DNA from: a virus
Lineage: Duplodnaviria > Heunggongvirae > Uroviricota > Caudoviricetes
Direction: 5' to 3' (one strand)
Virus record (IMG/VR): IMGVR_UViG_2623620502_000007
Length of the DNA: 35,017 nucleotides
Part shown: positions 7,047-31,127 of the stretch, one piece after another
Layout: every line of letters begins with the position of its first letter
Numbering within the stretch: position 1 is the stretch's first letter
Translations under genes and position numbers: made by a program
The notes under the pieces: generated by a model
The model's input: only the letters and a program-made list of their open reading frames with translations
What the model was told of the DNA's origin: nothing
The model's database searches: none

Positions 7047-8237
7047 TTAATTGCTGTTAACCGAGGTGACCAGATTTGCCAGGTATTTATCGGTAATACG
7101 CTGGCGCAGGGTCAGGTTTTCGAGAGGAGGCACCGGTGTATAGTCGTAGTCGATATACAGTTTTCCGGCCTTGAGGGTTTCCGCATCGTTGGATTCTTCG
7201 CTGAACCAGCAGGTCGCATCCACGATATAGCCGTTTGTTTTCAGCTCTCGGAATTTGGCATTGATGCCATCAACGATGTCGCGAATCAGCGTTGCGGTGA
7301 TGGGCTTGTCCACCGCCCACATGTGCGCCTCAGCCATCGTGTCGGCCAGCACCTGCGCGGTGCGGGTGTAGTTTTCAAAGAGGAACAGCGGGTCATCAGA
7401 GCAGGTACGGTTACCCCAGAAGCGGAAACCGTCACGGCGAATCAGCGTTGTGACGCCTGACTCATTCAGCAGGTCAGCATCGGTGCCGGACTCCTGCAAA
7501 TCCCAGAATACAGATGCGCTGATGCCGGTAACACCGTTCACCCCAACGTTGGACAGTGTTTTATGCCAGCCCTGCTCCTGGTCGATTTTAGCGCGCAGAC
7601 CCAGCGCACGGGCGGTGGCATACGCGGTGGCGGTGGTACTGGTGACCGTATCCCATGCGAGGAAATCCGGCCAGATGACCATCAGCTCACGCTGGCTGAA
7701 ATTCTGGCGGTAGGCTTTCACCTCGGAAATGGTCTTACAGCCCCATGCGCTGATATATCCGAAAGCGCGCAGCTTCTGACAGACGGATGCCAGTGCAACA
7801 GCCACCTCTTTGGTGTCCAGTCCCGGCACACCGAGAATACGCGGTTTAACACCGGTTACCGACTCTGCCGCCAGCAGGGCTTTCAGTCCGGTGTACTGAC
7901 CGTTTTCGTCGGTGGTGCCGATGATATTGGAAACGGTCTGCGCAAGTTTCGTTTCTTCGTCGTCGCCGGTGCCGTCCTCCACGCGCACAACAACGGTAAC
8001 CGGTTTTGACTGGTCGGCGATGGCCTGCAACGATGCCGCCAGCGTGCCTTTTTTACCGGCCTTTGCAATTGCGCTCTGCACATTGGTAATCAGCACCGGT
8101 TTATTGATGGGGAAGGTTTCCGCATCCGCATCGCTGGCCGTGCAGACCATGCCGACAATGGCTGTGGATACGGTGGAAATGACGCGGGTGCCGTCGTTAA
8201 TCTCCAGCACCTGCACGCCGTGATGATAGTCACTCAT
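7047..8237 (-). CDS. FI: Contractile tail sheath protein gpFI (396 aa)
   Basis: Length identical to P2 FI; N-terminus MSDYHHGVQVLEINDGTRVISTVSTAIVGMV; first gene of the FI-FII-E-T-U-D operon. Confidence 0.9.
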   Translation of the reverse strand: MSDYHHGVQVLEINDGTRVISTVSTAIVGMVCTASDADAETFPINKPVLITNVQSAIAKAGKKGTLAASLQAIADQSKPVTVVVRVEDGTGDDEETKLAQTVSNIIGTTDENGQYTGLKALLAAESVTGVKPRILGVPGLDTKEVAVALASVCQKLRAFGYISAWGCKTISEVKAYRQNFSQRELMVIWPDFLAWDTVTSTTATAYATARALGLRAKIDQEQGWHKTLSNVGVNGVTGISASVFWDLQESGTDADLLNESGVTTLIRRDGFRFWGNRTCSDDPLFLFENYTRTAQVLADTMAEAHMWAVDKPITATLIRDIVDGINAKFRELKTNGYIVDATCWFSEESNDAETLKAGKLYIDYDYTPVPPLENLTLRQRITDKYLANLVTSVNSN

Positions 8238-8330
8238 CCGTTTAACTCCGTGGTTAATGGGTGCAACTATTTTCCGTTGGGTAGTACATGAGACGCTATT
8301 TGACCTGGCTGGTCAGTGGATGAAACAACA

Positions 8331-8360
8331 GATAAAGAAAAGGCGGGCAATCTGCCCGCC
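8331..8360 (-). terminator. Rho-independent terminator on the minus strand, between the cargo gene and FI
   Basis: Hairpin ggcgggca-atc-tgcccgcc (8342-8360) followed on the minus strand by TTTTCTTTATC. Confidence 0.6.
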
Positions 8361-8592
8361 TGTCCTGATTTGTACACACTCATTTTCCGACTGACAATTT
8401 ACATAGCCAAAATGCTATCAAATCTGACAGCCTGTTTTGAGCGAAGAGGAACCTGAGATTGTGGTATGCTAATTTATGGGGAGCAGGTCAATTGTATTAG
8501 TTATCTTTTTGCCTTTCTTTATCCCATTTCTTTACAGTGGTCTGATACCACTCTTCACGTGTTCGTTATTCCTCTGCTCTGTCACTTGAATT

Positions 8593-9189
8593 TTAGTTGT
8601 CTGTTTTAATTTTTTTGCTTCCCTGGGAAATCGGCCTCCAGTCTTCTCTAATATTTTTCATCTGCTCAGCTATCTGTGTCATTGGACTCCTTGCACCTAA
8701 GTAGCTAACCCCCTCGAAAGAAGCCATATCATAAGAATACTCATTCCGCTCTCTTTCAGTTGAGCCCGGCTGTTTAGACCAGCTAATACTAACAGAATAA
8801 ACTTGATCTTTAATCTGGTCATACTTACAAAGACTGCTGTTGAGGGAATGGCCGTTTTTCAATACGCTAACCTTGCTAAATGGTATACCTTTATTTTTTC
8901 TATGTTCTGCATTAACCAGTGGGGGATTAAATCCGACTTCAATATCATAGGCTGGGGCATTTCCGGTATTAGCAATATTGATATCAAAATAAAAAGCAGC
9001 CCAAGAATTTGGTTCAAGAGTCACAACGACATGAGGTTGAACTGATGCGTCAACCATCCTTTTTGTCTCGTCTGCTAATAGCCTTGTTACTCTCCACAAG
9101 AAAAATGTAGCAACTGCTGTTAGCAATGCTGCCAAAGCGGAGATAAGTGTACTTACTGTGTTTATATGCTCTGCGATAAATTCGATCAT
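8593..9189 (-). CDS. Hypothetical membrane-anchored protein (198 aa), cargo in the FI/G slot
   Basis: AT-rich ORF with a Shine-Dalgarno-like AAGGA upstream; predicted single N-terminal transmembrane helix (VSTLISALAALLTAVATFFLW) followed by a roughly 165-aa soluble domain; no family recognised by eye. Confidence 0.6.
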   Translation of the reverse strand: MIEFIAEHINTVSTLISALAALLTAVATFFLWRVTRLLADETKRMVDASVQPHVVVTLEPNSWAAFYFDINIANTGNAPAYDIEVGFNPPLVNAEHRKNKGIPFSKVSVLKNGHSLNSSLCKYDQIKDQVYSVSISWSKQPGSTERERNEYSYDMASFEGVSYLGARSPMTQIAEQMKNIREDWRPISQGSKKIKTDN

Positions 9190-9641
9190 GAGTTGTCCTT
9201 GGGGGCGTACTAATTGTTTTCAATACTAAAATAGCGCCGGGCTTGAAAAATTGCACACTTATGGTTCGATTTACCTCAACAGTTAAGGCTTCAACTTCCC
9301 CCATGCACCTCACCCAGCCCAAGACTGTATGAGGTCTGACAAAGAACTTCCTGACACTTGAAAACGAGGCAACGGCTAGGGTTTCTCGTAGGGCAAGGAT
9401 TGAATACGAAGCCTGTATATTGCTCCGCGAACGCTGCTGAGGGCAGTTTAAATGTTGGGCGTTTATGTAGCCTTTCACTCACCAGCATGAGTTCAATGTC
9501 TGTGAGTTACCGACAACAATATAAAGGGGGTGGCATCATCATATATCCAAGCTAGAGTCAAATCCTCTAACTGGTTTTATGATCAGTGTCAATTGTTTGA
9601 TTATTGAACGTTTACGAAGCAGCACGGGAGCCATATAACTA

Positions 9642-9860
9642 ATGGGCAGGTATAAGCCTGTATCACGAGGAATCAGTAAAATGGCTGATGATAAGACCAA
9701 AATCGGTACCCCTGACAATGATTTAATAAGTATCAAACAGGATTACGAGAGACGTGATTGGGCTGAAAAGTTTGGAGTTAGCGAGACCAAACTTGTTCAA
9801 GCCGTACAGGCTGTAGGTCATTCGGCTAAGAAAGTACAGGCATGGCTTAAAGACCATTAA
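9642..9860 (+). CDS. Small hypothetical protein (72 aa; 59 aa if started at the internal ATG 9681), possibly DUF3606-like
   Basis: ORF in the AT-rich cargo region; the internal ATG at 9681 has the better RBS (GAGG about 10 nt upstream); the motif DYERRDWAEKFGVSETKLVQAVQAVG resembles DUF3606-type small proteins from memory. Confidence 0.5.
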   Translation: MGRYKPVSRGISKMADDKTKIGTPDNDLISIKQDYERRDWAEKFGVSETKLVQAVQAVGHSAKKVQAWLKDH

Positions 9861-9912
9861 TATATGAGCGCCTTTCTAGGCGCTTTTTTCTTTGTCCTTT
9901 GGGGGATGATTT

Positions 9913-10191
9913 ATGGCTAATAATTTATTTATTACTTACGACCTCATTAAAACGAAAGATTATGCGGCTGTGTATGATGCAATTAAATCTTTAGGAAATT
10001 GGGCTTTAACAACTGAATCGAACTGGTATGTTAACTGTAGTTACTCTGCCGAGGATGCAGCCAAAATTGTGAGGGCGATCATGGATAGTGATGATAAGCT
10101 TATTGTTGTAGACGCAACCAATAACTCAGCTTATTGGTACAATCTCTCAGATGAAGTTAGTAACCAAATTCTGACTGAGTGGAACAAGTAA
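9913..10191 (+). CDS. Small hypothetical protein (92 aa), cargo in the FI/G slot
   Basis: Strong RBS (GGGGGA 7-9 nt upstream of ATG), AT-rich codon usage, followed by a hairpin terminator; no family recognised. Confidence 0.6.
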   Translation: MANNLFITYDLIKTKDYAAVYDAIKSLGNWALTTESNWYVNCSYSAEDAAKIVRAIMDSDDKLIVVDATNNSAYWYNLSDEVSNQILTEWNK

Positions 10192-10196
10192 TTAAA

Positions 10197-10220
10197 GGGG
10201 GTGGGTAGCCCCCTTTAATT
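10197..10220 (+). terminator. Weak rho-independent terminator after the 92-aa ORF
   Basis: ggggg-tgggtag-ccccc stem-loop followed by tttaatt. Confidence 0.5.
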
Positions 10221-10411
10221 CAGAAACCATCATGATTGAAACATTAAATATACTGGGTTAATTCTTTCATCCTTGCTCCCTTGCTATATGTCCTGAAAGC
10301 GTCCTTTTTAGCCTTCTGCTCAGTATGTCCGGTAATGGCACAGAGCGGACTGCCAGATTAGGCTTTACTCTGTGCCATAGATATGTAATCTCACACCAGA
10401 GCTTATACAAC

Positions 10412-10939
10412 TTATTGCGGCATTTCCGGCCATTCAGGATTTGCAGGATCCACACGACTGACCAGAACGCTGTAGCGTTCCCAAGCCTCCAGCCGTGTGC
10501 GCTCCTCCTCTGTTGCCATGTTCAGCCTGACAGCGCGCTCCAGCGGCAAAATCACGGATTCAGCATCTGCAAGAAGTCTGGCTTTCCGATTTTCTGCCTG
10601 CTGCTGCAATTCCTCTGCCGTATAAATGCGTTTAATCACTTTGCCGTCCTTAAACATCCAGTTCCCTGAAATGTCCGCCCGTCGGTTAGCAGTAATATCC
10701 GCCACTTCAACCACACTTAATCCATCCGGTCTGATAGCTGTCACATCCTTTTCCACATAGCGGATGATATTATCTTTGTCGTACGCTATTTTTATCGTGT
10801 CATCAGCAAAATACTTTTGTTCTTCGTACCAGTTCTTACCATCTTCTGTAAAAAACCAGACGACATCAAAGTTCTTTGTCAATTGATATTGTTCAACCGT
10901 TTTTGGATTACCTGCCGTTATATTTATCAAATGCTGCAT
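10412..10939 (-). CDS. G: Tail fibre assembly chaperone gpG (175 aa)
   Basis: Length equals P2 G; immediately downstream of H with a 3-nt gap. Confidence 0.85.
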
Positions 10940-22019: not shown

Positions 22020-23792
22020 ATGACCATCACCACAGACACCACTCTTTTACACGACCCGCGTCGTCAGGCGGCGCTGCTGTACTGGCAGGGGTTTTCCGTG
22101 CCGCAGATTGCCGCCATGTTGCAGATGAAACGCCCGACGGTGCAGAGCTGGAAACAGCGCGACGGCTGGGACAGCGTTGCCCCCATCAGCCGTGTCGAAA
22201 TGAGTCTGGAAGCGCGACTGACCCAGCTCATCATCAAACCGCAGAAAACCGGCGGTGACTTCAAGGAAATTGACCTGCTGGGACGCCAGATTGAACGACT
22301 GGCACGGGTAAACCGCTACAGTCAGACCGGCAACGAGGCAGACCTTAATCCGAACGTCGCTAACCGCAACAAAGGCGGGCGTCGCAAACCGAAAAAGAAT
22401 TTTTTCAGTGACGAGGCCATCGAAAAGCTGGAGCAGATTTTCTTTGAGCAGTCTTTCGAATATCAGTTGCACTGGTATCGCGCCGGGCTTGAGCACCGCA
22501 TCCGCGATATCCTGAAATCCCGCCAGATTGGCGCGACGTTTTATTTTTCCCGCGAGGCGCTGCTGCGCGCCCTGAAAACCGGTCATAACCAGATTTTTCT
22601 GTCGGCCAGTAAAACGCAGGCGTATGTGTTCCGCGAATACATCATCGCCTTTGCCCGTCTGGTTGACGTTGACCTGACCGGTGACCCGATTGTCCTGGGC
22701 AATAACGGCGCAAAACTGATTTTTCTCGGCACCAACTCCAACACCGCACAGAGCCATAACGGCGACCTGTACGTCGACGAGATTTTCTGGATCCCGAATT
22801 TTCAGGTACTGCGTAAGGTGGCATCAGGTATGGCCTCACAGAGTCACCTGCGTTCGACCTATTTCTCCACCCCGTCCACGCTGGCGCACGACGCCTACCC
22901 GTTCTGGTCAGGTGAACTGTTCAACCGGGGACGCGCCAGCGCCGCCGAACGCGTGGAAATCGACGTCAGTCATAACGCCCTTGCCGGTGGGCTTCTCTGT
23001 GCGGACGGCCAGTGGCGGCAGATTGTCACCATTGAGGACGCCCTGAAAGGTGGCTGCACGCTGTTCGACATTGAGCAGCTCAAACGTGAAAACAGCGCCG
23101 ACGATTTTAAAAACCTGTTCATGTGTGAATTTGTTGACGACAAGGCGTCGGTGTTCCCGTTCGAGGAGCTGCAACGCTGCATGGTCGACACGCTGGAAGA
23201 ATGGGAAGACTATGCGCCGTTTGCCGCGAATCCGTTCGGCTCCCGCCCGGTATGGATTGGTTACGACCCGTCACACCGTGGCGACAGCGCCGGATGCGTG
23301 GTGCTGGCACCGCCGGTGGTGGCCGGTGGCAAATTCAGAATACTTGAGCGTCACCAGTGGAAAGGCATGGACTTTGCCACTCAGGCGGAATCCATCCGCA
23401 AACTCACCGAAAAATACAACGTCGAATACATCGGTATTGATGCCACCGGCCTCGGTGTCGGCGTGTTCCAGCTCGTGCGCTCGTTCTATCCCGCCGCGCG
23501 CGATATCCGCTACACGCCGGAAATGAAAACCGCAATGGTGCTCAAGGCAAAAGACGTTATCCGCCGTGGCTGTCTGGAATATGACGTCAGCGCCACCGAC
23601 ATCACCAGCTCGTTTATGGCTATCCGCAAGACCATGACCAGCAGCGGACGCAGCGCCACCTATGAGGCCAGCCGCAGCGAGGAAGCCAGCCACGCCGACC
23701 TCGCCTGGGCAACCATGCACGCCCTGTTAAATGAGCCACTCACCGCCGGTATCAGCACTCCGCTGACATCCACCATTCTGGAGTTTTACTGA
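22020..23792 (+). CDS. P: Terminase large (ATPase) subunit gpP (590 aa)
   Basis: Start taken at MTITTDTTLLHDPRRQ to give 590 aa as in P2 P; the six-frame ORF begins 10 codons upstream. Confidence 0.88.
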   Translation: MTITTDTTLLHDPRRQAALLYWQGFSVPQIAAMLQMKRPTVQSWKQRDGWDSVAPISRVEMSLEARLTQLIIKPQKTGGDFKEIDLLGRQIERLARVNRYSQTGNEADLNPNVANRNKGGRRKPKKNFFSDEAIEKLEQIFFEQSFEYQLHWYRAGLEHRIRDILKSRQIGATFYFSREALLRALKTGHNQIFLSASKTQAYVFREYIIAFARLVDVDLTGDPIVLGNNGAKLIFLGTNSNTAQSHNGDLYVDEIFWIPNFQVLRKVASGMASQSHLRSTYFSTPSTLAHDAYPFWSGELFNRGRASAAERVEIDVSHNALAGGLLCADGQWRQIVTIEDALKGGCTLFDIEQLKRENSADDFKNLFMCEFVDDKASVFPFEELQRCMVDTLEEWEDYAPFAANPFGSRPVWIGYDPSHRGDSAGCVVLAPPVVAGGKFRILERHQWKGMDFATQAESIRKLTEKYNVEYIGIDATGLGVGVFQLVRSFYPAARDIRYTPEMKTAMVLKAKDVIRRGCLEYDVSATDITSSFMAIRKTMTSSGRSATYEASRSEEASHADLAWATMHALLNEPLTAGISTPLTSTILEFY

Positions 23793-24826
23793 TGAGCAAG
23801 AAAAAAGGGAAAACACCGCAACCTGAGGCAAAAAAAATGACCGCCAGCGCCCCGAAAATGGAGGCTTTCACCTTTGGTGAGCCGGTGCCGGTACTCGACC
23901 GCCGTGACATTCTGGATTACGTCGAGTGCATCAGTAACGGCAGATGGTATGAGCCGCCGATCAGCTTTACCGGTCTGGCGAAAAGCCTGCGTGCTGCCGT
24001 GCATCACAGCTCACCGATTTACGTTAAACGCAATATTCTGGCCTCGACATTTATCCCGCATCCGTGGCTTTCGCAACAGGATTTCAGCCGCTTTGTGCTG
24101 GATTTTCTGGTGTTCGGTAATGCGTTTCTGGAAAAGCGTTACAGCACCACCGGTAAGGTCATCAGACTGGAAACCTCACCGGCAAAATATACCCGCCGTG
24201 GCGTGGAGGAGGATGTTTACTGGTGGGTGCCGTCCTTCAACGAGCCGACAGCCTTCACGCCCGGCTCCGTGTTTCACCTGCTGGAGCCGGATATCAATCA
24301 GGAGCTGTACGGCCTGCCGGAATATCTCAGCGCCCTTAATTCTGCCTGGCTGAATGAATCAGCCACACTGTTCCGCCGCAAGTATTACGAAAACGGCGCT
24401 CATGCCGGATACATCATGTACGTCACTGATGCCGTGCAGGATCGCAACGATATCGAAATGCTTCGCGAAAACATGGTGAAGTCGAAAGGCCGCAACAACT
24501 TTAAAAATCTGTTTCTCTATGCCCCACAGGGGAAAGCCGACGGCATCAAAATTATCCCGCTCAGTGAAGTGGCAACGAAGGACGATTTTTTTAATATCAA
24601 AAAAGCCAGCGCCGCTGACCTGCTGGACGCGCACCGCATCCCCTTTCAGTTGATGGGCGGCAAGCCGGAGAACGTCGGGTCGCTGGGTGATATTGAGAAA
24701 GTGGCAAAGGTCTTTGTCCGCAATGAGCTTATCCCGCTACAGGACAGGATCCGCGAGATAAACGGCTGGCTCGGTCAGGAGGTCATCCGCTTTAAAAACT
24801 ACTCACTGGACACTGACAACGGCTGA
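23792..24826 (+). CDS. Q: Portal protein gpQ (344 aa)
   Basis: Length equals P2 Q; start overlaps the P stop (ATGA); reads toward cos. Confidence 0.9.
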   Translation: MSKKKGKTPQPEAKKMTASAPKMEAFTFGEPVPVLDRRDILDYVECISNGRWYEPPISFTGLAKSLRAAVHHSSPIYVKRNILASTFIPHPWLSQQDFSRFVLDFLVFGNAFLEKRYSTTGKVIRLETSPAKYTRRGVEEDVYWWVPSFNEPTAFTPGSVFHLLEPDINQELYGLPEYLSALNSAWLNESATLFRRKYYENGAHAGYIMYVTDAVQDRNDIEMLRENMVKSKGRNNFKNLFLYAPQGKADGIKIIPLSEVATKDDFFNIKKASAADLLDAHRIPFQLMGGKPENVGSLGDIEKVAKVFVRNELIPLQDRIREINGWLGQEVIRFKNYSLDTDNG

Positions 24827-24993
24827 ACATCGCCGCCTGCGGGCGGCTTTTTTATACCCCGTCATCACGCCCTCACTCGCTCACCACCGCACAAAACACC
24901 CCGCAGACACACCAACCCCCAACGGGCAGACTAAGCGCCGTCACGACGCGCTGAGACGCTGGAAAATAAAATCAGCACCACCGCCAGCGCGCA

Positions 24994-25012
24994 GTGCTTT
25001 CCCCGCCTCGCC
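24994..25012. other. cos site (19-nt cohesive-end sequence)
   Basis: gtgctttccccgcctcgcc is the reverse complement of GGCGAGGCGGGGAAAGCAC, which I recall as the P2 cohesive end; it lies about 170 nt beyond Q, as expected. Confidence 0.75.
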
Positions 25013-25063
25013 CGCCCGCTTCGTGGGGCAGTTTTAATGCATATGAATGTAAATTTAGAAACC

Positions 25064-25091
25064 ATACCAAGCCTAGATATAGGCTTGGTAT
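25064..25091. terminator. Perfect 12-bp inverted repeat hairpin (ataccaagccta-gata-taggcttggtat); candidate bidirectional terminator
   Basis: Lies 50 nt downstream of the minus-strand kinase operon stop and just past cos; T-rich tract tttatt follows on the plus strand and the minus-strand flank is moderately U-rich. Confidence 0.45.
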
Positions 25092-25140
25092 TTATTCAGG
25101 AATTGTGAATGCAAAATAATGCAAGAATATGCATTATTTA

Positions 25141-26202
25141 CTACTTAGCCTTGATAACTGGATGAGCCCGGTCATGGCCCCCTCCCAAGAACTTTGAAAA
25201 AATCACCTTATCATTACTCACTGGTTTACTACCATACACACTATCGTAATGAAAAAATACTTGTGGTTGGTTTGGTATACGAATGAAACCATAAGCTAGT
25301 CTAGTATCACCTATTACTCCTTCTTCTCTATTACAAACCGGATAGCATAATTGACCACATAATGACACGAGCTCATCTGCAGTGGGGCGTTTAGAAGGGT
25401 CTAGATTTAAACATTTTTCAATTATATCTATAATTTCATTTGCCAGCGGAGCAAACTGCTTATTTGACTTAATAAAATCAGGATATTGAGTATGCTTTCC
25501 AGATAAGATGTTCGGAATAGCCATATACCCTAATCCAAAAGGATACTCTCCCGTGAGGATTCTGAACATCATCGCACCTAATGCCCAGACATCAGATGGT
25601 TTTGAAACTTGCCCCTGACTTTGTATAATTTCCGGGGCCATATATGGCAATGCCCCCATAGCTGTTTGAGATGAAGTAATCGATCCTTGCCCATTCTTTG
25701 CGGCCTCATCAATTTCATCACCGGCCATTTTTGAAATTCCAAAATCGGTGATTTTAACACCTGTAGCACTAACTCCTCCAATAACCATTATGTTAGAAGG
25801 TTTGAGGTCTCGATGTATTACATCCACATGATGGGAAGCCGAAAGAGCCTTCGCTAAGTTATGAAATATCTTTGCAGTCAAGTAAGGATCAACACTTGTA
25901 TAGCTACTCAACAATGCTTTATCCAGATCTACTCCATCGATAAATTCCTCCGTTAAAAATTCACGTCCATCTTCGGCAAAATAATCTAATGTTTTAGCGA
26001 CGTTAGGATGGTTGACCCTAGATGCTAAAATAGCACTTCTATGGAATCGTTTTTCAGCAGACTTATTTTTAGGGGTCTTAAGAGCAACTTGCCTATTTAA
26101 TATCTTATCATTCGCAAGGTAAACCTTTTGCATCCCCCCCTCACCAATTTCGCTGATAATAGTATAACGATTTATATTAGTCCCAGGAACCAACTCAATC
26201 AT
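25141..26202 (-). CDS. Hanks-type Ser/Thr protein kinase with C-terminal OB-fold-like extension (353 aa), third gene of the cargo operon
   Basis: Kinase motifs IGEGGMQKV (Gly-rich loop), VALK, HRDLKPSN, DFG, APE, DVWALG; start ATG overlaps the upstream kinase stop (ATGA) with GGAGG 7 nt upstream; AT-rich. Confidence 0.85.
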   Translation of the reverse strand: MIELVPGTNINRYTIISEIGEGGMQKVYLANDKILNRQVALKTPKNKSAEKRFHRSAILASRVNHPNVAKTLDYFAEDGREFLTEEFIDGVDLDKALLSSYTSVDPYLTAKIFHNLAKALSASHHVDVIHRDLKPSNIMVIGGVSATGVKITDFGISKMAGDEIDEAAKNGQGSITSSQTAMGALPYMAPEIIQSQGQVSKPSDVWALGAMMFRILTGEYPFGLGYMAIPNILSGKHTQYPDFIKSNKQFAPLANEIIDIIEKCLNLDPSKRPTADELVSLCGQLCYPVCNREEGVIGDTRLAYGFIRIPNQPQVFFHYDSVYGSKPVSNDKVIFSKFLGGGHDRAHPVIKAK

Positions 26203-27263
26203 AACACAACCTCCGGATGAGAAAGATCAAATGTGATAAATATACGTTTTGTAGTTGTTCTTCCGGCAGGGCCAAGTATTATCACGCATGAGCTAGGCAA
26301 TAAATTTCGTTTTTTAGCCCTAATATTATTAACATAGACATCCCCTGATATATCTGAAATATAAAACTCGGAACCAGAGTAAGTAATTTCCACACTACCC
26401 ACCCCTGGATTGTTATAAGACTCCGTCTTGTGTGTAGCTGAGAGCACTACTGGTTTTTTATTATCAGATATAAGCAATGCTCGATGAGAGTTGTGCAATA
26501 ATATTTTTTTCAAAACATCGCAAACATCTTTCATAGGGGGCCTAGCTTGAGGATTTGCATCAAGACATTTGAAAAACAATTCCTTTACAATACTTGGTAA
26601 TTTTATTACCGACAAATCAAATGGATTAGATGTCAGAATCTTAGGGTAACGGGTCAATTCATCTGGGACAGGGGTTTTAGCTAAGCACATTGCTGTAACA
26701 GCAAAGGCATATGTATCAATTGCTTTAGTAAAGTCTACGTTCTGCAAATACAACTCAGGAGCTGCAAAAATTGGGGTACCTTTAAACCCAATTGTTTTTG
26801 CATTATCTATTTTTCTTGACAAGCCAAAATCATATATTTTTACAAGCCCTTCTTTATCAATCTTCATATTCCCAGGCTTTATATCACGATGAATGATATC
26901 ATGTTCATGTATCTCGCAAATACCTGATGCTATTTGCCACAAAATCTTAATAAGCTCCCCTACTGTAGTAATTTTATTATTAACTTCATTCAACGATGGA
27001 CCATCGATAAACTCTTCAACAATTGCAAGATTGCCTTCAGCATAATTAATCACATCAAACAGTTCAACAACATGTTTTGAACGTAGTGTCATTAGAGCAG
27101 CCAACTCGTCTTTCATTCGCTCTGTATCTGATGGATCATTTATAGTCTTTATTGCAACAAATCTCTCAAGATGAGAATCGCGGCATTTGATTACACTACC
27201 AAATCCCCCTAAATCAGGATCCCCAACCACTTGATATCTTTCTGGGAGAAAATCACTCATCAT
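26199..27263 (-). CDS. Hanks-type Ser/Thr protein kinase with uncharacterised C-terminal domain (about 354 aa), second gene of the cargo operon
   Basis: Motifs LGGFGSV, VAIK, HRDIKPGN, DFG, APE; start taken at the ATG preceded by AAGGAG with 6-nt spacing (the six-frame ORF begins 2 codons upstream at 27269); overlaps the phosphatase stop. Confidence 0.85.
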   Translation of the reverse strand: MMSDFLPERYQVVGDPDLGGFGSVIKCRDSHLERFVAIKTINDPSDTERMKDELAALMTLRSKHVVELFDVINYAEGNLAIVEEFIDGPSLNEVNNKITTVGELIKILWQIASGICEIHEHDIIHRDIKPGNMKIDKEGLVKIYDFGLSRKIDNAKTIGFKGTPIFAAPELYLQNVDFTKAIDTYAFAVTAMCLAKTPVPDELTRYPKILTSNPFDLSVIKLPSIVKELFFKCLDANPQARPPMKDVCDVLKKILLHNSHRALLISDNKKPVVLSATHKTESYNNPGVGSVEITYSGSEFYISDISGDVYVNNIRAKKRNLLPSSCVIILGPAGRTTTKRIFITFDLSHPEVVL

Positions 27264-28449
27264 CACCATCTCCTTTTATTGAATTCCTTTCAAGGAATGA
27301 CATGTCAAGCTGTGAAATACAATCAAGTCTATTATTTTTATTTAACCCATTTTTTTTCTCATCTAATTCCTGAAGAGATTTATTCTTATTTTTTGTTCTT
27401 GCCTTTCTTTTTGTTGTTGCTTTGTTTATATCGCTAACGACTGAATCAGTATTTTTTTTGTTTGACACTTTTCTAACACCAGAAGTGCCTTTATTATTTT
27501 TTTCAAGCTCAACTGTATTTAAAGGCTCTAATGAAGATGACTTATTCGGCACGCTAATGACTTTTAATTCACCAAATGGATCCCAGAGATTTATTACATC
27601 TCCAGATGAAACATCTAACTCTTTTAGAGTATTAAAAAGGTCTATAACTGCTATACTTGCATTGTCGAAACCACCAAACCAACTAGCAAGATCAATAACC
27701 CGCCTAGAATAAACACCTAGATTCGCCGAGTGCACATATAACTTTCTTAAATTATCCTTACCGATAGAATGCGCACCATCAGAACTTAAAATAATTACGC
27801 CACTCTCCAAGGCTTGGATATGATGAAAGTGTATTTCCAATGTGCCATCTATGCCTATAAATTGTACTAATTCACCACCAAAGCGTAAATCAATATCCTG
27901 TGGATCCATATTTAGATGATTATTATACTTTTTGGCTAAGGCAACTAAAGTATCGTCCTCGCTCAACTGAGTAGTTTCTTCATGCGAGACATAATAAATA
28001 CGGCTATCACCTACATTTACTGCGGTAATATTATCATCATCTTCTAAAGCTATCGCTGATAATGTCGCCCCTCCATTACCCTTATATACATTCAAAACAG
28101 AATCATTCGCTTGTAGCACAGCTTTCTCAAGACAAGAACGTATTGGTAAATGAGAATTTCTTATTATTTCAGTAAAAAATGTAGATAAAGTTAAAGATGC
28201 TGCATTGGCACCCCCCTCCATCCCCCCCATACCATCGGCTAACGCAACAACAACGATATCTTTAGCTTTGCTACTTGGGCGGAATTTCAATATAGCAACC
28301 CTATCTTGGTTTTCCTTCCGTACCAACCCAATGTCAGTAGCTATAGCCACTGGTAAGGTTGAGACACGACGCACTGAGGATGCTATATTTTTTCGATGTA
28401 GCCATCCGTGAATATGCTCATGAAGGATTTCGTAAGAATCACGGCTCAC
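27253..28449 (-). CDS. PP2C (PPM) family Ser/Thr phosphatase with Lys/Asn-rich C-terminal tail (398 aa), first gene of the cargo operon
   Basis: PP2C signature motifs ENQDR, ALADGMGG, VGDSR, SSDGAH, DNAS; GTG start 4 nt after AGGAGG (an in-frame ATG one base upstream runs straight into TGA); AT-rich. Confidence 0.82.
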   Translation of the reverse strand: MSRDSYEILHEHIHGWLHRKNIASSVRRVSTLPVAIATDIGLVRKENQDRVAILKFRPSSKAKDIVVVALADGMGGMEGGANAASLTLSTFFTEIIRNSHLPIRSCLEKAVLQANDSVLNVYKGNGGATLSAIALEDDDNITAVNVGDSRIYYVSHEETTQLSEDDTLVALAKKYNNHLNMDPQDIDLRFGGELVQFIGIDGTLEIHFHHIQALESGVIILSSDGAHSIGKDNLRKLYVHSANLGVYSRRVIDLASWFGGFDNASIAVIDLFNTLKELDVSSGDVINLWDPFGELKVISVPNKSSSLEPLNTVELEKNNKGTSGVRKVSNKKNTDSVVSDINKATTKRKARTKNKNKSLQELDEKKNGLNKNNRLDCISQLDMSFLERNSIKGDGDDE

Positions 28450-28579
28450 ATTACCTCCTAGTTACTTTGATAGACCAAAGAGTTAGCTTACAAAAATAGA
28501 GCGGAAATGCCTAGTGTTTCAATCGATTTTTGTGAGAATTGGTTATTTAATAACTATATAAAAACATTGGAATTTACCA

Positions 28580-30862
28580 CTAATTCCAGTTAGCAAAAAG
28601 CCCCCATTCCTCTTGCGAGCGCTCATTAAAACTATAATATTTTCCTTCGTAAAAGAGTGTAGCTCCGCGAGCTAGAGCAAGAAGCAGCCACCTTTCCACC
28701 GCAACCCCCTGCTGAGCAAGGTCTACGCGGATACGGGTAATTTGCATTCGTTCTGACCGGGTCAGTCTGGCCGATGGTGCAATTTCATGCGGTTTTAACG
28801 GGCTTCCATTTCTTTGCTGACGGTTTGGCGTTCTCAGGTCGTGTTTTAATGCGCCCCTGAGCGCCCTCACGACCTCCGGTTCATTCCATTCAATAACACC
28901 GTCATCAACCAGATTAAGCACTGCTGCGGCGTGCTCAGAAGGAGTGGGAGCCGGTAACGAAGTATCACCGCTGGTGAGCTTTCCACAGTTATTGACAGGA
29001 CTCCGAGGCGCGGCGATGCCGCTTTTTAAAGTCAAAGGCTCAACGACCGGCACTTTCGGCACAATGCGCCAGTCCGTCGTTCTGGTGATATGAATATGAC
29101 GCGCGCCGAGATGCGGCGCGTAAATGCCGACCACTCTCTCGACTTCTTCCTCGTACTCGTTAACGTCATCCGACGGGCTACGGGCAACCCTGACAGTCTG
29201 ACAATCGCGCGGAACATTTGCCCCACCCTGCGCGCTGATATACAACGCAAAATCACCACTGTCTGCGGCGGCGCGTGCAGCCTCGACGCGTTCGTCAAAC
29301 TCATCAGCAATGCTGACGCCACGAGGCAATTTGCGTAGTTCACGGTAAGCCCCCATTGTCGGCAGACCAACCGTTTTAAATTGCGGGATGCGCCACGTTG
29401 ACGCCCATGCGGTAACAGCCGCGGCAGTATCTTTAAGCGGCCTGCCGGTATCGTTATCGAGCTGACCATCCAGTGCATAGCCGTCGATATTTTTTGAGAT
29501 GTATTTAGCGATATACCCCGCAGCACCACCCCGGTTAAGGTGTTTTGCCTGAAAACGGTTTCGCGCGGCTCCTCTTTCGTCGCCATCCTCTTTGAGCGCA
29601 TAGCGACGCATGATTTCGATAATCTGGTTACGCTGGCGTGGATTACAAAAAAGCATCATATGCCAGTGCGGCGTTCCGTCGTGGTGTGGCTCGACGACAC
29701 GCAAACCGTAGACCTGTAAATCATTATCCTTGAATGCCGTGCGCATCAGGCTCCAGATACGGCAGAGATAACGCTGCGCATCCTTTGGATTAAATGCCTC
29801 ATCATTCCAGCCGTGATTAAGCTGGACGGTTTTACTTTCGCCTTTTCCGACCTGACGTGTCGGGTGATACTTTGACGGCGTGGTCAGCGTGATAAACATC
29901 CCCACATCACCCTCTGCGGCGGCGTAACGCTCAATACCGGCAATGGTGTTCATCAGCTCCATCCGGCGAATTTCAGGATTAGAAATACTGCCCATCACCT
30001 TACTGATAAGGTCGATGCGCTCGCCGGTTTCCCTGTTTTCAAGGTCACACGATTTAAGAAATTCCAGATTTGCCTGGCGGCGTGCACGCACATCACGAAT
30101 GGCATGTTTACTGGCATAAGGAGAACGGTCTTTATTGACTTCCCCGACAGCTATCAGTAACGCCTCATGCCAGCGCATACGCTGGCCTTTAAGCTGATGA
30201 GTCCACCACTCATCGTTAAACAGACGGGCAATGGCAGAATATGCCTGCCTCGTGGTCATCTGCCCTTTACGGTATTTTTTCCAGTAGAGAGGGGAAATAT
30301 TGAAAGCACGTGCAGCGCCAGCAACATGACCATAGAGGTGAGCCTGCGCCTCATCCGTAAACAGCGATTCTTTTTCGCCATGCGCATCCACCCAGGCATC
30401 GCTGAGTTCCTCATACATCATGAAAAGCTGCGATGAGATACGGGCAGCAAACTTTTTCAGCTCCTTGTCATTCATTCCCGGCAGGCGCGCATAGTGGTCA
30501 CGCTCTGCCAGAAACAGTAACGACGCGTCGGTGTTCATTTCATGGCGCTGATTCACACGCTCAATGCGCGGCCATAAACGACGCTGAAAAGTGGATGTGA
30601 GGAAATAAAACCCGTGCACCGGGCTTTTATTGCGCCGGATGTAGTCATAGCGTGAAGTAAACAGCGAGCGCAAAAAGTAAGGCAGGCGGTTAATCGTGGA
30701 TAAAACACCTTGCACCTGACGCATCTCGTCACGTGTAAGGGGTCTTTCGCGCCCGACGGCCTCGCGTGGCGCGTTCCATGCATAAGCACCGGTAAACGTC
30801 TTACCGGTGCCTGCGGCAAATGCTGACGGAGGGACAAAACGCCCGGAGGCTTTAACGGCCAT
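28580..30862 (-). CDS. A: Replication initiator gpA (rolling-circle nickase, about 760 aa)
   Basis: Start taken at MAVKASGRFVPPSAF; large protein with conserved HxH (PHWHMML) and Tyr motifs; the six-frame ORF extends 14 codons upstream to 30904, so the start is uncertain. Confidence 0.85.
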   Translation of the reverse strand: MAVKASGRFVPPSAFAAGTGKTFTGAYAWNAPREAVGRERPLTRDEMRQVQGVLSTINRLPYFLRSLFTSRYDYIRRNKSPVHGFYFLTSTFQRRLWPRIERVNQRHEMNTDASLLFLAERDHYARLPGMNDKELKKFAARISSQLFMMYEELSDAWVDAHGEKESLFTDEAQAHLYGHVAGAARAFNISPLYWKKYRKGQMTTRQAYSAIARLFNDEWWTHQLKGQRMRWHEALLIAVGEVNKDRSPYASKHAIRDVRARRQANLEFLKSCDLENRETGERIDLISKVMGSISNPEIRRMELMNTIAGIERYAAAEGDVGMFITLTTPSKYHPTRQVGKGESKTVQLNHGWNDEAFNPKDAQRYLCRIWSLMRTAFKDNDLQVYGLRVVEPHHDGTPHWHMMLFCNPRQRNQIIEIMRRYALKEDGDERGAARNRFQAKHLNRGGAAGYIAKYISKNIDGYALDGQLDNDTGRPLKDTAAAVTAWASTWRIPQFKTVGLPTMGAYRELRKLPRGVSIADEFDERVEAARAAADSGDFALYISAQGGANVPRDCQTVRVARSPSDDVNEYEEEVERVVGIYAPHLGARHIHITRTTDWRIVPKVPVVEPLTLKSGIAAPRSPVNNCGKLTSGDTSLPAPTPSEHAAAVLNLVDDGVIEWNEPEVVRALRGALKHDLRTPNRQQRNGSPLKPHEIAPSARLTRSERMQITRIRVDLAQQGVAVERWLLLALARGATLFYEGKYYSFNERSQEEWGLFANWN

Positions 30863-31127
30863 ATGAGCCAAAAACCTCTGAACAACGCTTGCTGAGTTGC
30901 TCAACCTGCGCGTTTAAATCAGCAAAAGACTTTGCGCTTCCGGTCAGAATATCGTGATGCATCAGGCCGGAAACGAGCTGGCTTAATTTCGGGTAATAAC
31001 CAACCACCGACAGCCATTCCTGACCGGCGTTTTTACCGCTTTCCGCTCTCTTTTTCTCGTGGAGAATAAACTGAAAGCTGTCACTGGTAACGACATAACG
31101 TTCGCCAATTTCAATACGAATACTCAT
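30852..31127 (-). CDS. Hypothetical early-region protein (91 aa)
   Basis: Sits between the TraR-like gene and A in the early operon, the position of the small orf80-83 genes of P2; overlaps neighbours at both ends. Confidence 0.6.
   Translation of the reverse strand: MSIRIEIGERYVVTSDSFQFILHEKKRAESGKNAGQEWLSVVGYYPKLSQLVSGLMHHDILTGSAKSFADLNAQVEQLSKRCSEVFGSYGR

Follow-up and report, generated by a model that had tools for sequence, protein, structure and literature searches.

A phosphatase-kinase-kinase operon in a P2-like prophage

We have analysed a stretch of DNA of 35,017 nucleotides from a virus of the Caudoviricetes (IMG/VR record IMGVR_UViG_2623620502_000007; the whole stretch is hereafter called the window), with a focus on the C-terminal tail of a protein phosphatase. 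The product of the corresponding open reading frame (ORF) is a phosphatase of the PPM/PP2C type, and its gene is followed by two protein kinase genes in the cargo region of a P2-like prophage. The features of this region are listed below.

27253..28449, minus strand: pfpC-type PP2C phosphatase gene, the KKP antitoxin; one ORF with a GTG start, 398 amino acids
26199..27263, minus strand: pfkB-type Ser/Thr kinase, 354 amino acids from the start called by the Prokaryotic Genome Annotation Pipeline (PGAP), WP_050438546.1
25141..26202, minus strand: pfkA-type Ser/Thr kinase, 353 amino acids, cold-shock domain and GFI motif at its C-terminus
24827..28579, no strand: P2-like prophage cargo hotspot, bounded by gpQ (portal) and gpA (replication)
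23792..24826, plus strand: portal gene gpQ (RefSeq annotation of the identical locus)
28580..30904, minus strand: replication endonuclease gene gpA (RefSeq annotation of the identical locus)

The three operon genes are co-directional, in the order phosphatase, kinase, kinase, and overlap by 11 nucleotides (pfpC/pfkB) and 4 nucleotides (pfkB/pfkA). PGAP and RefSeq annotate the identical 398-residue phosphatase (WP_032316594.1) in Escherichia coli VG12A2; the chromosome of this strain and the window are 100% identical in the KKP part. Both kinases match the Pkinase family (PF00069), with E values of 1e-39 for PfkB and 9e-47 for PfkA. The AlphaFold2 model of PfkB, with a pLDDT (predicted local distance difference test) value of 91, consists of the kinase domain followed by an all-β C-terminal domain of about 90 residues (260–350); this part, where the KKP definition has an FHA domain (PF00498; PMC11341870), gave no Pfam match at E≤10 and no meaningful sequence-profile match in the PDB, FHA not being detected by either, and its all-β fold is compatible with an FHA domain. 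At the C-terminus of PfkA the sequence YGFIRI is present and the single-sequence Pfam match to the cold-shock domain stays below threshold (E 0.012), while a profile built from 15 orthologous PfkA C-termini matches cold-shock-domain structures (Unr, CspB) with E values from 3e-6 to 1e-4.

Such an arrangement is that of the KKP module, in which the kinases PfkA and PfkB are jointly toxic and the phosphatase PfpC is the antitoxin, and which defends against T4 and T-odd phages (PMC11341870). More than 1200 KKP clusters have been reported by Guo et al. 2024, and four heterologous modules, one from E. coli, were found to be active, the allele of the window not being among them (PMC11341870). The interval between gpA and gpQ is a described defence hotspot of P2 (PMC9122126; PMC13586616), and in the window the KKP operon has a guanine-plus-cytosine (GC) content of 35–40%, against 51–59% in the prophage flanks. 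The gene order, the cold-shock domain and GFI motif of PfkA, and the location in a low-GC island between gpA and gpQ match the definition of KKP and its P2 context (PMC11341870). The PfpC modules of Pseudomonas Pf6 and of P2/P4/Mu-like prophages share with the window the operon order, the tight overlaps and a last kinase with cold-shock domain and GFI motif; also, the published KKP occupies the same niche (P2-type prophage, interval between GPA and portal) and its phosphatase is a protein of about 360–400 residues having, as in the window, a C-terminal region after the phosphatase domain. We thus identify with high confidence the tail under study as the disordered C-terminus of the PfpC-type antitoxin of a KKP module in an E. 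coli P2-like prophage. As far as genome annotation is concerned this is an ordinary finding, the locus being a recognisable KKP module.

In a PADLOC v2.0.0 search, which has no KKP model, the phosphatase remained without match and the kinases matched only generic families (mad6, PD-T4-6, MkoA). The window allele is rare: of 5426 complete E. coli genomes, 4 have it at an identity of at least 99%, and an allele of about 74% identity occupies the same gpA–gpQ position elsewhere, for example in strain S40 (locus L002).

Architecture of the phosphatase

Ahead of the tail, the protein is composed of the following parts, all encoded on the minus strand.

28360..28449, minus strand: N-terminal extension, residues 1–30, with a helix at 5–17, ahead of the PP2C core (high-confidence AlphaFold2 prediction)
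27640..28359, minus strand: PP2C catalytic core, residues 31–270 (invariant PPM motifs; alignment of the NCBIfam Stp1 model)
27556..27639, minus strand: family-specific β-hairpin closing the globular part, residues 271–298 (AlphaFold2 and conservation)
27565..27585, minus strand: WDPFGEL motif within the hairpin, residues 289–295 (W289, D290 and G293 conserved at 98–99%)

The assignment of the protein to the PP2C phosphatases, already made in an earlier note on this DNA, is borne out at the levels of family match, catalytic residues and fold. The match to PF13672 scores 27 bits against a Pfam cut-off of 24 bits, and the PPM motifs R44/N47-Q48-D49, D72-G-x-G-G76, G147-D-S-R150, D224-G225 and D262-N263 are invariant among the 99 sequences over which column conservation was calculated, the metal-binding aspartates being thus kept (D72-G73-M-G75-G76, D224-G225 and D262-N263 in 99/99). 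The AlphaFold2 model, computed from an alignment of 99 homologues, has a predicted template modelling score of 0.76, and a Foldseek search with this model retrieves tPphA, STP, MsPP and PstP as best matches, with E values from 1e-15 to 1e-13 and a target-normalised template modelling score of about 0.8. The NCBIfam Stp1 model of PP2C aligns to residues 38–269 only, with a score far under its cut-off, and phrog_17277, a PHROGs family of unknown function, spans residues 8–390, tail included, to its last profile position.

The stand-alone PPM/PP2C enzymes (tPphA, Stp1/STP, the catalytic domain of PstP and MsPP) have in common with the window phosphatase the fold and the metal-binding motifs. They are however only about 220–257 residues long, and to this the window protein adds an N-terminal helix of about 30 residues, the WDPFGEL hairpin and a disordered tail of about 100 residues. 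The N-terminal extension, which has no counterpart in the stand-alone bacterial enzymes, is the best-conserved part of the protein, with 88% identity among close homologues compared to 73% in the core, and W16 and R19 within it are invariant in the 99-sequence alignment. The hairpin strands (285–290 and 293–298) are predicted with a pLDDT of about 90.

Composition and disorder of the tail

The segment at 27253–27552 on the minus strand corresponds to residues 300–398 and the stop codon. It had been described in the earlier note as a tail of roughly 100 residues rich in Lys and Asn which follows the catalytic domain, is highly basic and of low complexity, and ends in an acidic GDGDDE. The sequence is exactly as described and so is the enrichment: residues 299–398 contain 16% Lys, 14% Asn and 12% Ser, and when the 1297 windows of 100 residues across 29 long ORFs of the stretch are ranked by Lys plus Asn content, the six that lie over the tail (0.29–0.31) are the top six, against a median of 0.10. 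The other two descriptions are only moderately true, as the tail has 21 Lys/Arg versus 15 Asp/Glu, that is a net charge of +6, and a Shannon entropy of 3.67 bits versus 4.03 in the domain. The charge is moreover unevenly divided, since residues 299–372 are basic (+10) and the final 26 residues acidic (−4).

The AlphaFold2 model indicates that the tail is disordered. While residues 1–300 have pLDDT values mostly of 88–98, with a single block of 10 residues at 81, residues 301–398 range from 42 to 59 and secondary structure ends at residue 306. A slight rise to 53–55 is noted in the final 18 residues, which include the hexapeptide motif described below. Docking of this motif in cis onto the PP2C domain was sought in the model and none was found, which fits with a partner acting in trans. 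A Pfam search with the isolated tail returned only noise (E above 0.2), and a search of the tail-coding DNA for an internal promoter of the kinases gave no promoter-like site on the minus strand within 27253–27552.

We have also considered that the tail could result from a wrongly called frameshift or form a small ORF of its own; this is rejected as the ORF is continuous, PGAP agrees with it and hundreds of homologues show the same architecture. Opposite to the tail-coding DNA lie two ORFs on the plus strand, at 27231–27437 (68 amino acids) and 27422–27712 (96 amino acids). They are rich in Phe, Leu and Ser, as one expects of the complement of Lys, Asn and Glu codons, and are most likely spurious.

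Two conserved motifs in a variable tail

The comparison of tails was made on a first set, comprising the best 120 homologues with identities down to about 35%, and on a wider set with 132 further representatives from clustering at 50% identity; the relaxed motif pattern was counted over 244 full-length family members. The homologues of the first set are 337–440 residues long, the nearest named ones being 69% identical to the window phosphatase, and distant ones align over the first ~290 residues only. Throughout the homologues examined a tail of 52–142 residues is kept, with a median of 84 residues after the WDPFGEL hairpin in the best 120. A profile search of 1.84 billion representatives yielded 1022 PfpC clusters (50% identity) at E≤1e-30, and among the profile matches listed most extend to the C-terminal profile positions. 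The tails share the same order of elements: a variable linker, a Lys/Arg cluster, a spacer, a hexapeptide in the context [P/S]-Q-L-x-I/M-x-F and a short charged end. In the window these are as follows.

27424..27555, minus strand: tail part 1, variable disordered linker, residues 299–342 (pLDDT 42–59)
27379..27423, minus strand: tail part 2, basic cluster KATTKRKARTKNKNK, residues 343–357 (conservation)
27313..27378, minus strand: tail part 3, variable spacer, residues 358–379 (low identity)
27295..27312, minus strand: tail part 4, amphipathic hexapeptide QLDMSF, residues 380–385 (conservation)
27256..27294, minus strand: tail part 5, charged C-terminal end LERNSIKGDGDDE, residues 386–398 (sequence)

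The linker and the spacer are poorly conserved, with identities of 13% and 27% among close homologues and of 6% and 5% among distant ones, respectively. The basic cluster, with the core KRKARTKNKNK, is 50% identical among close homologues, and at least six Lys/Arg within a 12-residue window are found in 177 of 187 family tails versus 3 of 187 catalytic domains. The hexapeptide, at 70% identity among close homologues, is nearly as conserved as the catalytic core (73%), its column conservation over the 99 sequences being 0.82 for Gln, 0.79 for Leu, 0.84 for Ile (Met in the window) and 0.93 for Phe. Within the last 40 residues the strict pattern occurs in 104 of the best 120 homologues, versus 0.006 expected per protein, and the relaxed pattern [Q/E]-φ-x-φ-x-φ (φ, hydrophobic) is found within the last 45 residues of 199 of 244 family members, compared to 4 of 244 when a slice of the domain is taken as control. 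Position 1 is Gln in 185/232 sequences and position 2 is Leu, Ile or Val in nearly all; position 4 is Ile in 167, Met (as in the window) in 31, Val in 19, Leu in 8 and Phe in 7 of 232; and position 6 is Phe in 178/232, a sizeable sub-clade having Ile, Val or Leu instead, as in QLEIEI. The centre of the basic cluster lies at a median of 26 residues from the hexapeptide (interquartile range 20–31), and the last residue of the hexapeptide, usually Phe, is followed by 1–13 residues, with medians of 9 in the 120 homologues and 6.5 in the wider set, and 13 in the window.

The amino acid composition of the tail varies with that of the gene. When 15 KKP loci are compared, gene GC correlates with the Asn and Lys contents of the tail at r = −0.86 and −0.85, and with Pro plus Ala at r = +0.86, while Lys plus Arg remains constant at 0.17±0.04. 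The Lys/Asn-rich appearance is therefore mostly a by-product of low GC, by mutational drift of an unconstrained linker in which only positive charge is kept, and the informative content of the tail resides in the two short conserved motifs and not in its bulk composition.

The idea of a conserved phospho-acceptor Ser/Thr in the basic cluster, acting as ligand of the PfkB FHA domain, was dropped family-wide, as no column has a conserved Ser or Thr. A further observation concerns the last strand of PfkB (26199–26240 in the window, residues ~340–354), R-x-F-[IV]-T-F-D-[LV]-S-[HN]-P-E-V, which is nearly invariant among 86 homologues. It has in common with the PfpC motif Q-L-D-[IM]-S-F the pattern φ-D-φ-S; mimicry or competition for a shared site is conceivable. 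As an exception to the family pattern, a gammaproteobacterial metagenome-assembled genome (locus L019, 3908–5143) encodes, in a KKP context, a PP2C whose tail is repetitive and rich in Thr, Asp, Glu and Pro, with no amphipathic motif near the C-terminus.

The acidic end and the start of pfkB

The GDGDDE end pointed out in the earlier note is indeed present, but as a protein feature it has to be seen largely in another light, namely as the ribosome-binding site and start of pfkB. The last seven codons of the phosphatase gene (27256..27276) at the same time serve the initiation of pfkB translation: the final codons AAA GGA GAT GGT GAT GAT GAG TGA hold an AGGAG Shine-Dalgarno sequence (within 27268..27276) as well as ATG codons at 27269, 27263 and 27260. 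The PGAP start of pfkB is the one at 27263, which gives the overlap of 11 nucleotides with pfpC and lies six nucleotides past GGAG. The acidity of K-G-D-G-D-D-E is thus largely due to the fact that these codons carry the Shine-Dalgarno sequence and start codons of pfkB. In 12 of 14 loci analysed the stop codon of pfpC either overlaps with the start of pfkB or lies next to it (−25 to +10 nucleotides), and in several loci a GGAG resembling a Shine-Dalgarno sequence is found among the last codons of pfpC. Both the terminal acidity and the conserved K-G-D are thus largely a nucleotide-level constraint of translational coupling. In practical terms, pfkB loses its start codon and ribosome-binding site upon a naive truncation of the tail; kinase dosage is thereby changed, and the phenotypes of such deletions can be confounded.

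Co-occurrence of the tail with the kinases

We have compared the 15 KKP loci with 64 non-KKP PP2C loci, these being among the matches listed in a scan of genome contigs, mostly generic PP2Cs, and serving as negative control. The basic cluster is present in 15/15 KKP loci and the amphipathic motif in 11/15, while the two motifs together are found in 0/64 of the listed non-KKP loci. Two PfpC-like PP2Cs of Shewanella, from S. marinintestina (locus L003, 3947–4900) and S. schlegeliana (locus L004, 3977–4885), are 36–38% identical to the window protein. Neither has adjacent kinase genes, and both end about 14 residues past the WD.FGE hairpin, that is, they have no tail. The tail is a hallmark of the PfpC family with a fixed layout, and it co-occurs with the kinases.

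The statement of the earlier note that such a tail is unusual for bacterial PP2C enzymes therefore applies to the ordinary ones, whose solved members are about 220–257 residues long and which have both motifs in none of the 64 loci, and does not apply to the PfpC family, where the tail is standard. As to functional homologues, on which the earlier note made its proposal depend, the tail is present in E. coli, Klebsiella and phage-borne modules of a kind whose function has been demonstrated.

Among phages themselves, tblastn against 50,697 phage records gave 4 matches from 3 distinct phages, Pf6 not being among them. The P2-like Klebsiella phage Kp4865-2 (locus L083, 3492–6683) has a complete KKP with the variant tail motif QLDIEI, of the QLEIEI-type sub-clade. 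The Planktothrix cyanophage PaV-LD (locus L084, 3471–5425) encodes a tailed PP2C with the basic cluster and PQVNIEF, followed downstream by a truncated PfkB-like kinase of 272 amino acids and no PfkA.

A possible docking arm

In the published work the C-terminal region of PfpC is referred to as a ‘domain of unknown function’ (PMC11341870) or a ‘predicted disordered region’ (PMC12328805). Neither the two-motif anatomy nor the overlap with the pfkB start that we observe in the window is mentioned there for the Pf6-type PfpC, according to full-text and supplement searches of these two papers. Purified Pseudomonas PfpC yields a stable fragment shortened by about 44 residues at the C-terminus, and in cell lysates PfpC undergoes degradation, a process which RepG4 speeds and RepG6 slows (PMC12328805). 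The arginine-rich RepG4 of Pf4 binds PfpC, inhibits it and triggers its degradation (PMC12328805), and Gp59 of T4 binds and inhibits PfpC (PMC11341870). The KKP module and the disordered C-terminus of PfpC were therefore already known; the anatomy of the tail motifs, the dependence of the tail on the kinase context and the caveat on pfkB initiation are new here.

We infer that the tail takes no part in catalysis or in toxin neutralisation as such. Roles in nucleic-acid association, membrane association or partner docking, as put forward in the earlier note, are possible candidates, and we tentatively favour the reading that the tail is a flexible arm with a putative bipartite docking element, a proposal for which we would claim something short of an even chance. 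Of the two elements, the basic patch would bind to an acidic surface or to nucleic acid, and the hexapeptide would take on the form of a short β-strand once bound. At native low expression, the tail would hold the phosphatase close to the two kinases of its module or to those of their substrates that are bound to nucleic acid. As an unstructured segment, it would also offer the obvious way in for the proteolysis by which the kinases are reported to be released. Taken as a whole, that is the identity of the tail as that of PfpC, its layout and its function as a docking arm, this is the best explanation that we can offer, and we lean slightly towards its being correct.

The motifs of mitogen-activated protein kinase (MAPK) phosphatases and substrates known as D-motif or kinase-interaction motif (KIM) consist of a basic cluster followed within 1–6 residues by φ-x-φ. 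By analogy, the docking logic of the PfpC tail resembles these motifs by which eukaryotic phosphatases hold kinases: in both cases a basic patch and alternating hydrophobic residues would be carried by a disordered segment, and in PfpC, too, a phosphatase opposes Hanks-type kinases. The resemblance is to be taken as an analogy of mechanism only, since in the PfpC tail the gap is of about 20–30 residues instead of 1–6 and the hydrophobic element is φ-x-φ-x-φ with a leading Gln.

A number of observations weigh against a docking arm. The median spacing of 26 residues is far above that of classical kinase-docking motifs, and 4 of the 15 KKP loci have no recognisable hexapeptide. A Pseudomonas PfpC with its C-terminus deleted still neutralises PfkA/PfkB toxicity (PMC11341870, Supplementary Fig. 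5b), and so does C-terminally degraded PfpC (PMC12328805). We assume here, from the family pattern, that the Pseudomonas C-terminus is homologous to the window tail and that the deletion removed the same motifs. As the deletion leaves neutralisation intact, a tether to the kinases can be dispensed with, at least when expression from plasmids is high.

The question is of relevance as KKP is a widespread prophage system of defence and lysogeny control in which the restraint and release of the phosphatase are only partly understood. The fact that the tail motifs are conserved over genes of 37–63% GC, and that the tail is gone where the kinases are absent, defines a precise and cheap set of point mutations.

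Alternative roles for the tail

The readings that compete with a docking arm are not mutually exclusive. Among them, the one that survives best is that of a degron or protease handle, which we nevertheless regard as rather unlikely: the disordered tail would mainly set the lifetime of the antitoxin, offering AAA+ proteases such as Lon or ClpXP, or an adaptor, an unstructured place to start; the hexapeptide or the basic cluster would be the tag that is recognised, and the phage-triggered degradation of PfpC would free the kinases. The predicted disorder of the tail in the AlphaFold2 model is consistent with this, as are the degradation of PfpC in lysates, accelerated by RepG4 and slowed by RepG6, and the clipping of the ~44 C-terminal residues with a stable core left (PMC12328805). 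Also, a tail that is dispensable for neutralisation (PMC11341870) is what would be expected of a pure stability element. However, the stability of the clipped core shows lability of the tail and not a targeting of the whole protein by it. The antitoxin action in KKP is enzymatic, so a dependence on turnover is unnecessary. Tags of the ssrA-like and MuA-like kinds are C-terminal, unlike the hexapeptide, which is internal and followed by a median of 6.5 residues.

Less probable still is that the tail is a bait for the phage trigger, the acidic and hydrophobic end (L-D-x-I-S-Q-L-D-M-S-F-L-E...D-G-D-D-E) mimicking the acidic tails of single-stranded DNA-binding protein (SSB) and drawing basic phage replication proteins such as Gp59 or RepG, which would then inhibit or destabilise the phosphatase. 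The tip of SSB has the sequence DDDIPF, with which the hexapeptide has D-I/M-x-F in common, and the final 26 residues carry a net negative charge. Recognition of the SSB tip requires, however, a free C-terminal Phe, and in this family 1–13 residues (13 in the window) follow the end of the hexapeptide; the terminal acidity, in turn, is largely imposed by the overlapping start region of pfkB. The known triggers are indeed replication proteins that bind PfpC, namely Gp59 and the arginine-rich RepG4 (for the latter, PMC12328805), and the escape mutation G32E of Gp59 adds a negative charge, being interpreted by its authors as an alteration of surface electrostatics near the interface (PMC11341870). 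Yet in the published structural model Gp59 covers the active site and thus sits on the phosphatase domain (PMC11341870).

At a comparably low level, we rate as improbable that the tail is a tether to DNA and the sliding clamp, in which the basic cluster would bind nucleic acid and Q-L-x-I-x-F would bind DnaN, the phosphatase being parked at replication forks beside the cold-shock domain of PfkA. In a slightly broader form, the putative pairing of basic cluster and hexapeptide as a DNA/β-clamp tether, or as a mimic of the tails of SSB or clamp partners, which would likewise keep the antitoxin at replication forks, is equally doubtful. The clamp-binding consensus is Q-φ-x-L-x-L, as in Pol III α (QVELEF), Pol IV (QLVLGL) and Hda (QLSLPL) (bioRxiv 10.64898/2026.05.27.728225). 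The PfpC motif and the β-clamp hexapeptides are alike in Gln at position 1 (185/232), in the aliphatic residue that comes next, in position 6 being hydrophobic or aromatic (Phe in 178/232) and in their location within a disordered terminus. They differ in position 4, which is Leu in only 8/232 PfpC sequences and Ile or Met in 198/232 (85%), and in that the PfpC motif is not at the extreme terminus. The sub-clade with Ile, Val or Leu for the final Phe, as in QLEIEI, and the 4 of 15 KKP loci without the motif speak further against clamp binding, and the likeness is to a short degenerate pattern. On the other hand, the reported kinase targets include PolA, TopA and DnaG, the triggers are replication proteins, and the SocB toxin is already known to bind DnaN through such a motif (PMC9690074). 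If this were true, KKP would in effect monitor the integrity of the replisome, and the kinases would be fired when phage replication proteins such as Gp59 or RepG displace the phosphatase from its tether or destabilise it.

It is finally very improbable that the tail is a mere filler of an AT-rich, horizontally acquired gene, having no function at the protein level and kept only for the pfkB coupling signals in its 3′ end; the correlation of Asn and Lys with GC (r = −0.86 and −0.85 over 15 loci), the essentially unconstrained linker and spacer, the Shine-Dalgarno sequence and starts of pfkB in the last 7 codons and the lack of a neutralisation phenotype upon C-terminal deletion (PMC11341870) would all agree with it, but the coupling signals cover just the last ~7 codons and not a tail of 52–142 residues present in all homologues examined (from a family of 1022 clusters at E≤1e-30), conservation of the basic cluster and hexapeptide holds at the amino acid level across genes of 37%–63% GC, and the kinase-less relatives have lost the tail.

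A second cargo island

Apart from the KKP operon, the window has a second low-GC cargo island (37–45%) at 8240–10400, between the genes for the tail sheath (7047..8237, minus strand) and for tail-fibre assembly (10412..10939, minus strand). It contains the following ORFs.

8593..9189, minus strand: 198-amino-acid ORF with an N-terminal hydrophobic helix, no Pfam match
9642..9860, plus strand: 72-amino-acid DUF3606 protein (E 9e-18)
9913..10191, plus strand: 92-amino-acid ORF, no Pfam match

Judged by its position, this island may represent the other locus that is variable in P2-like phages.

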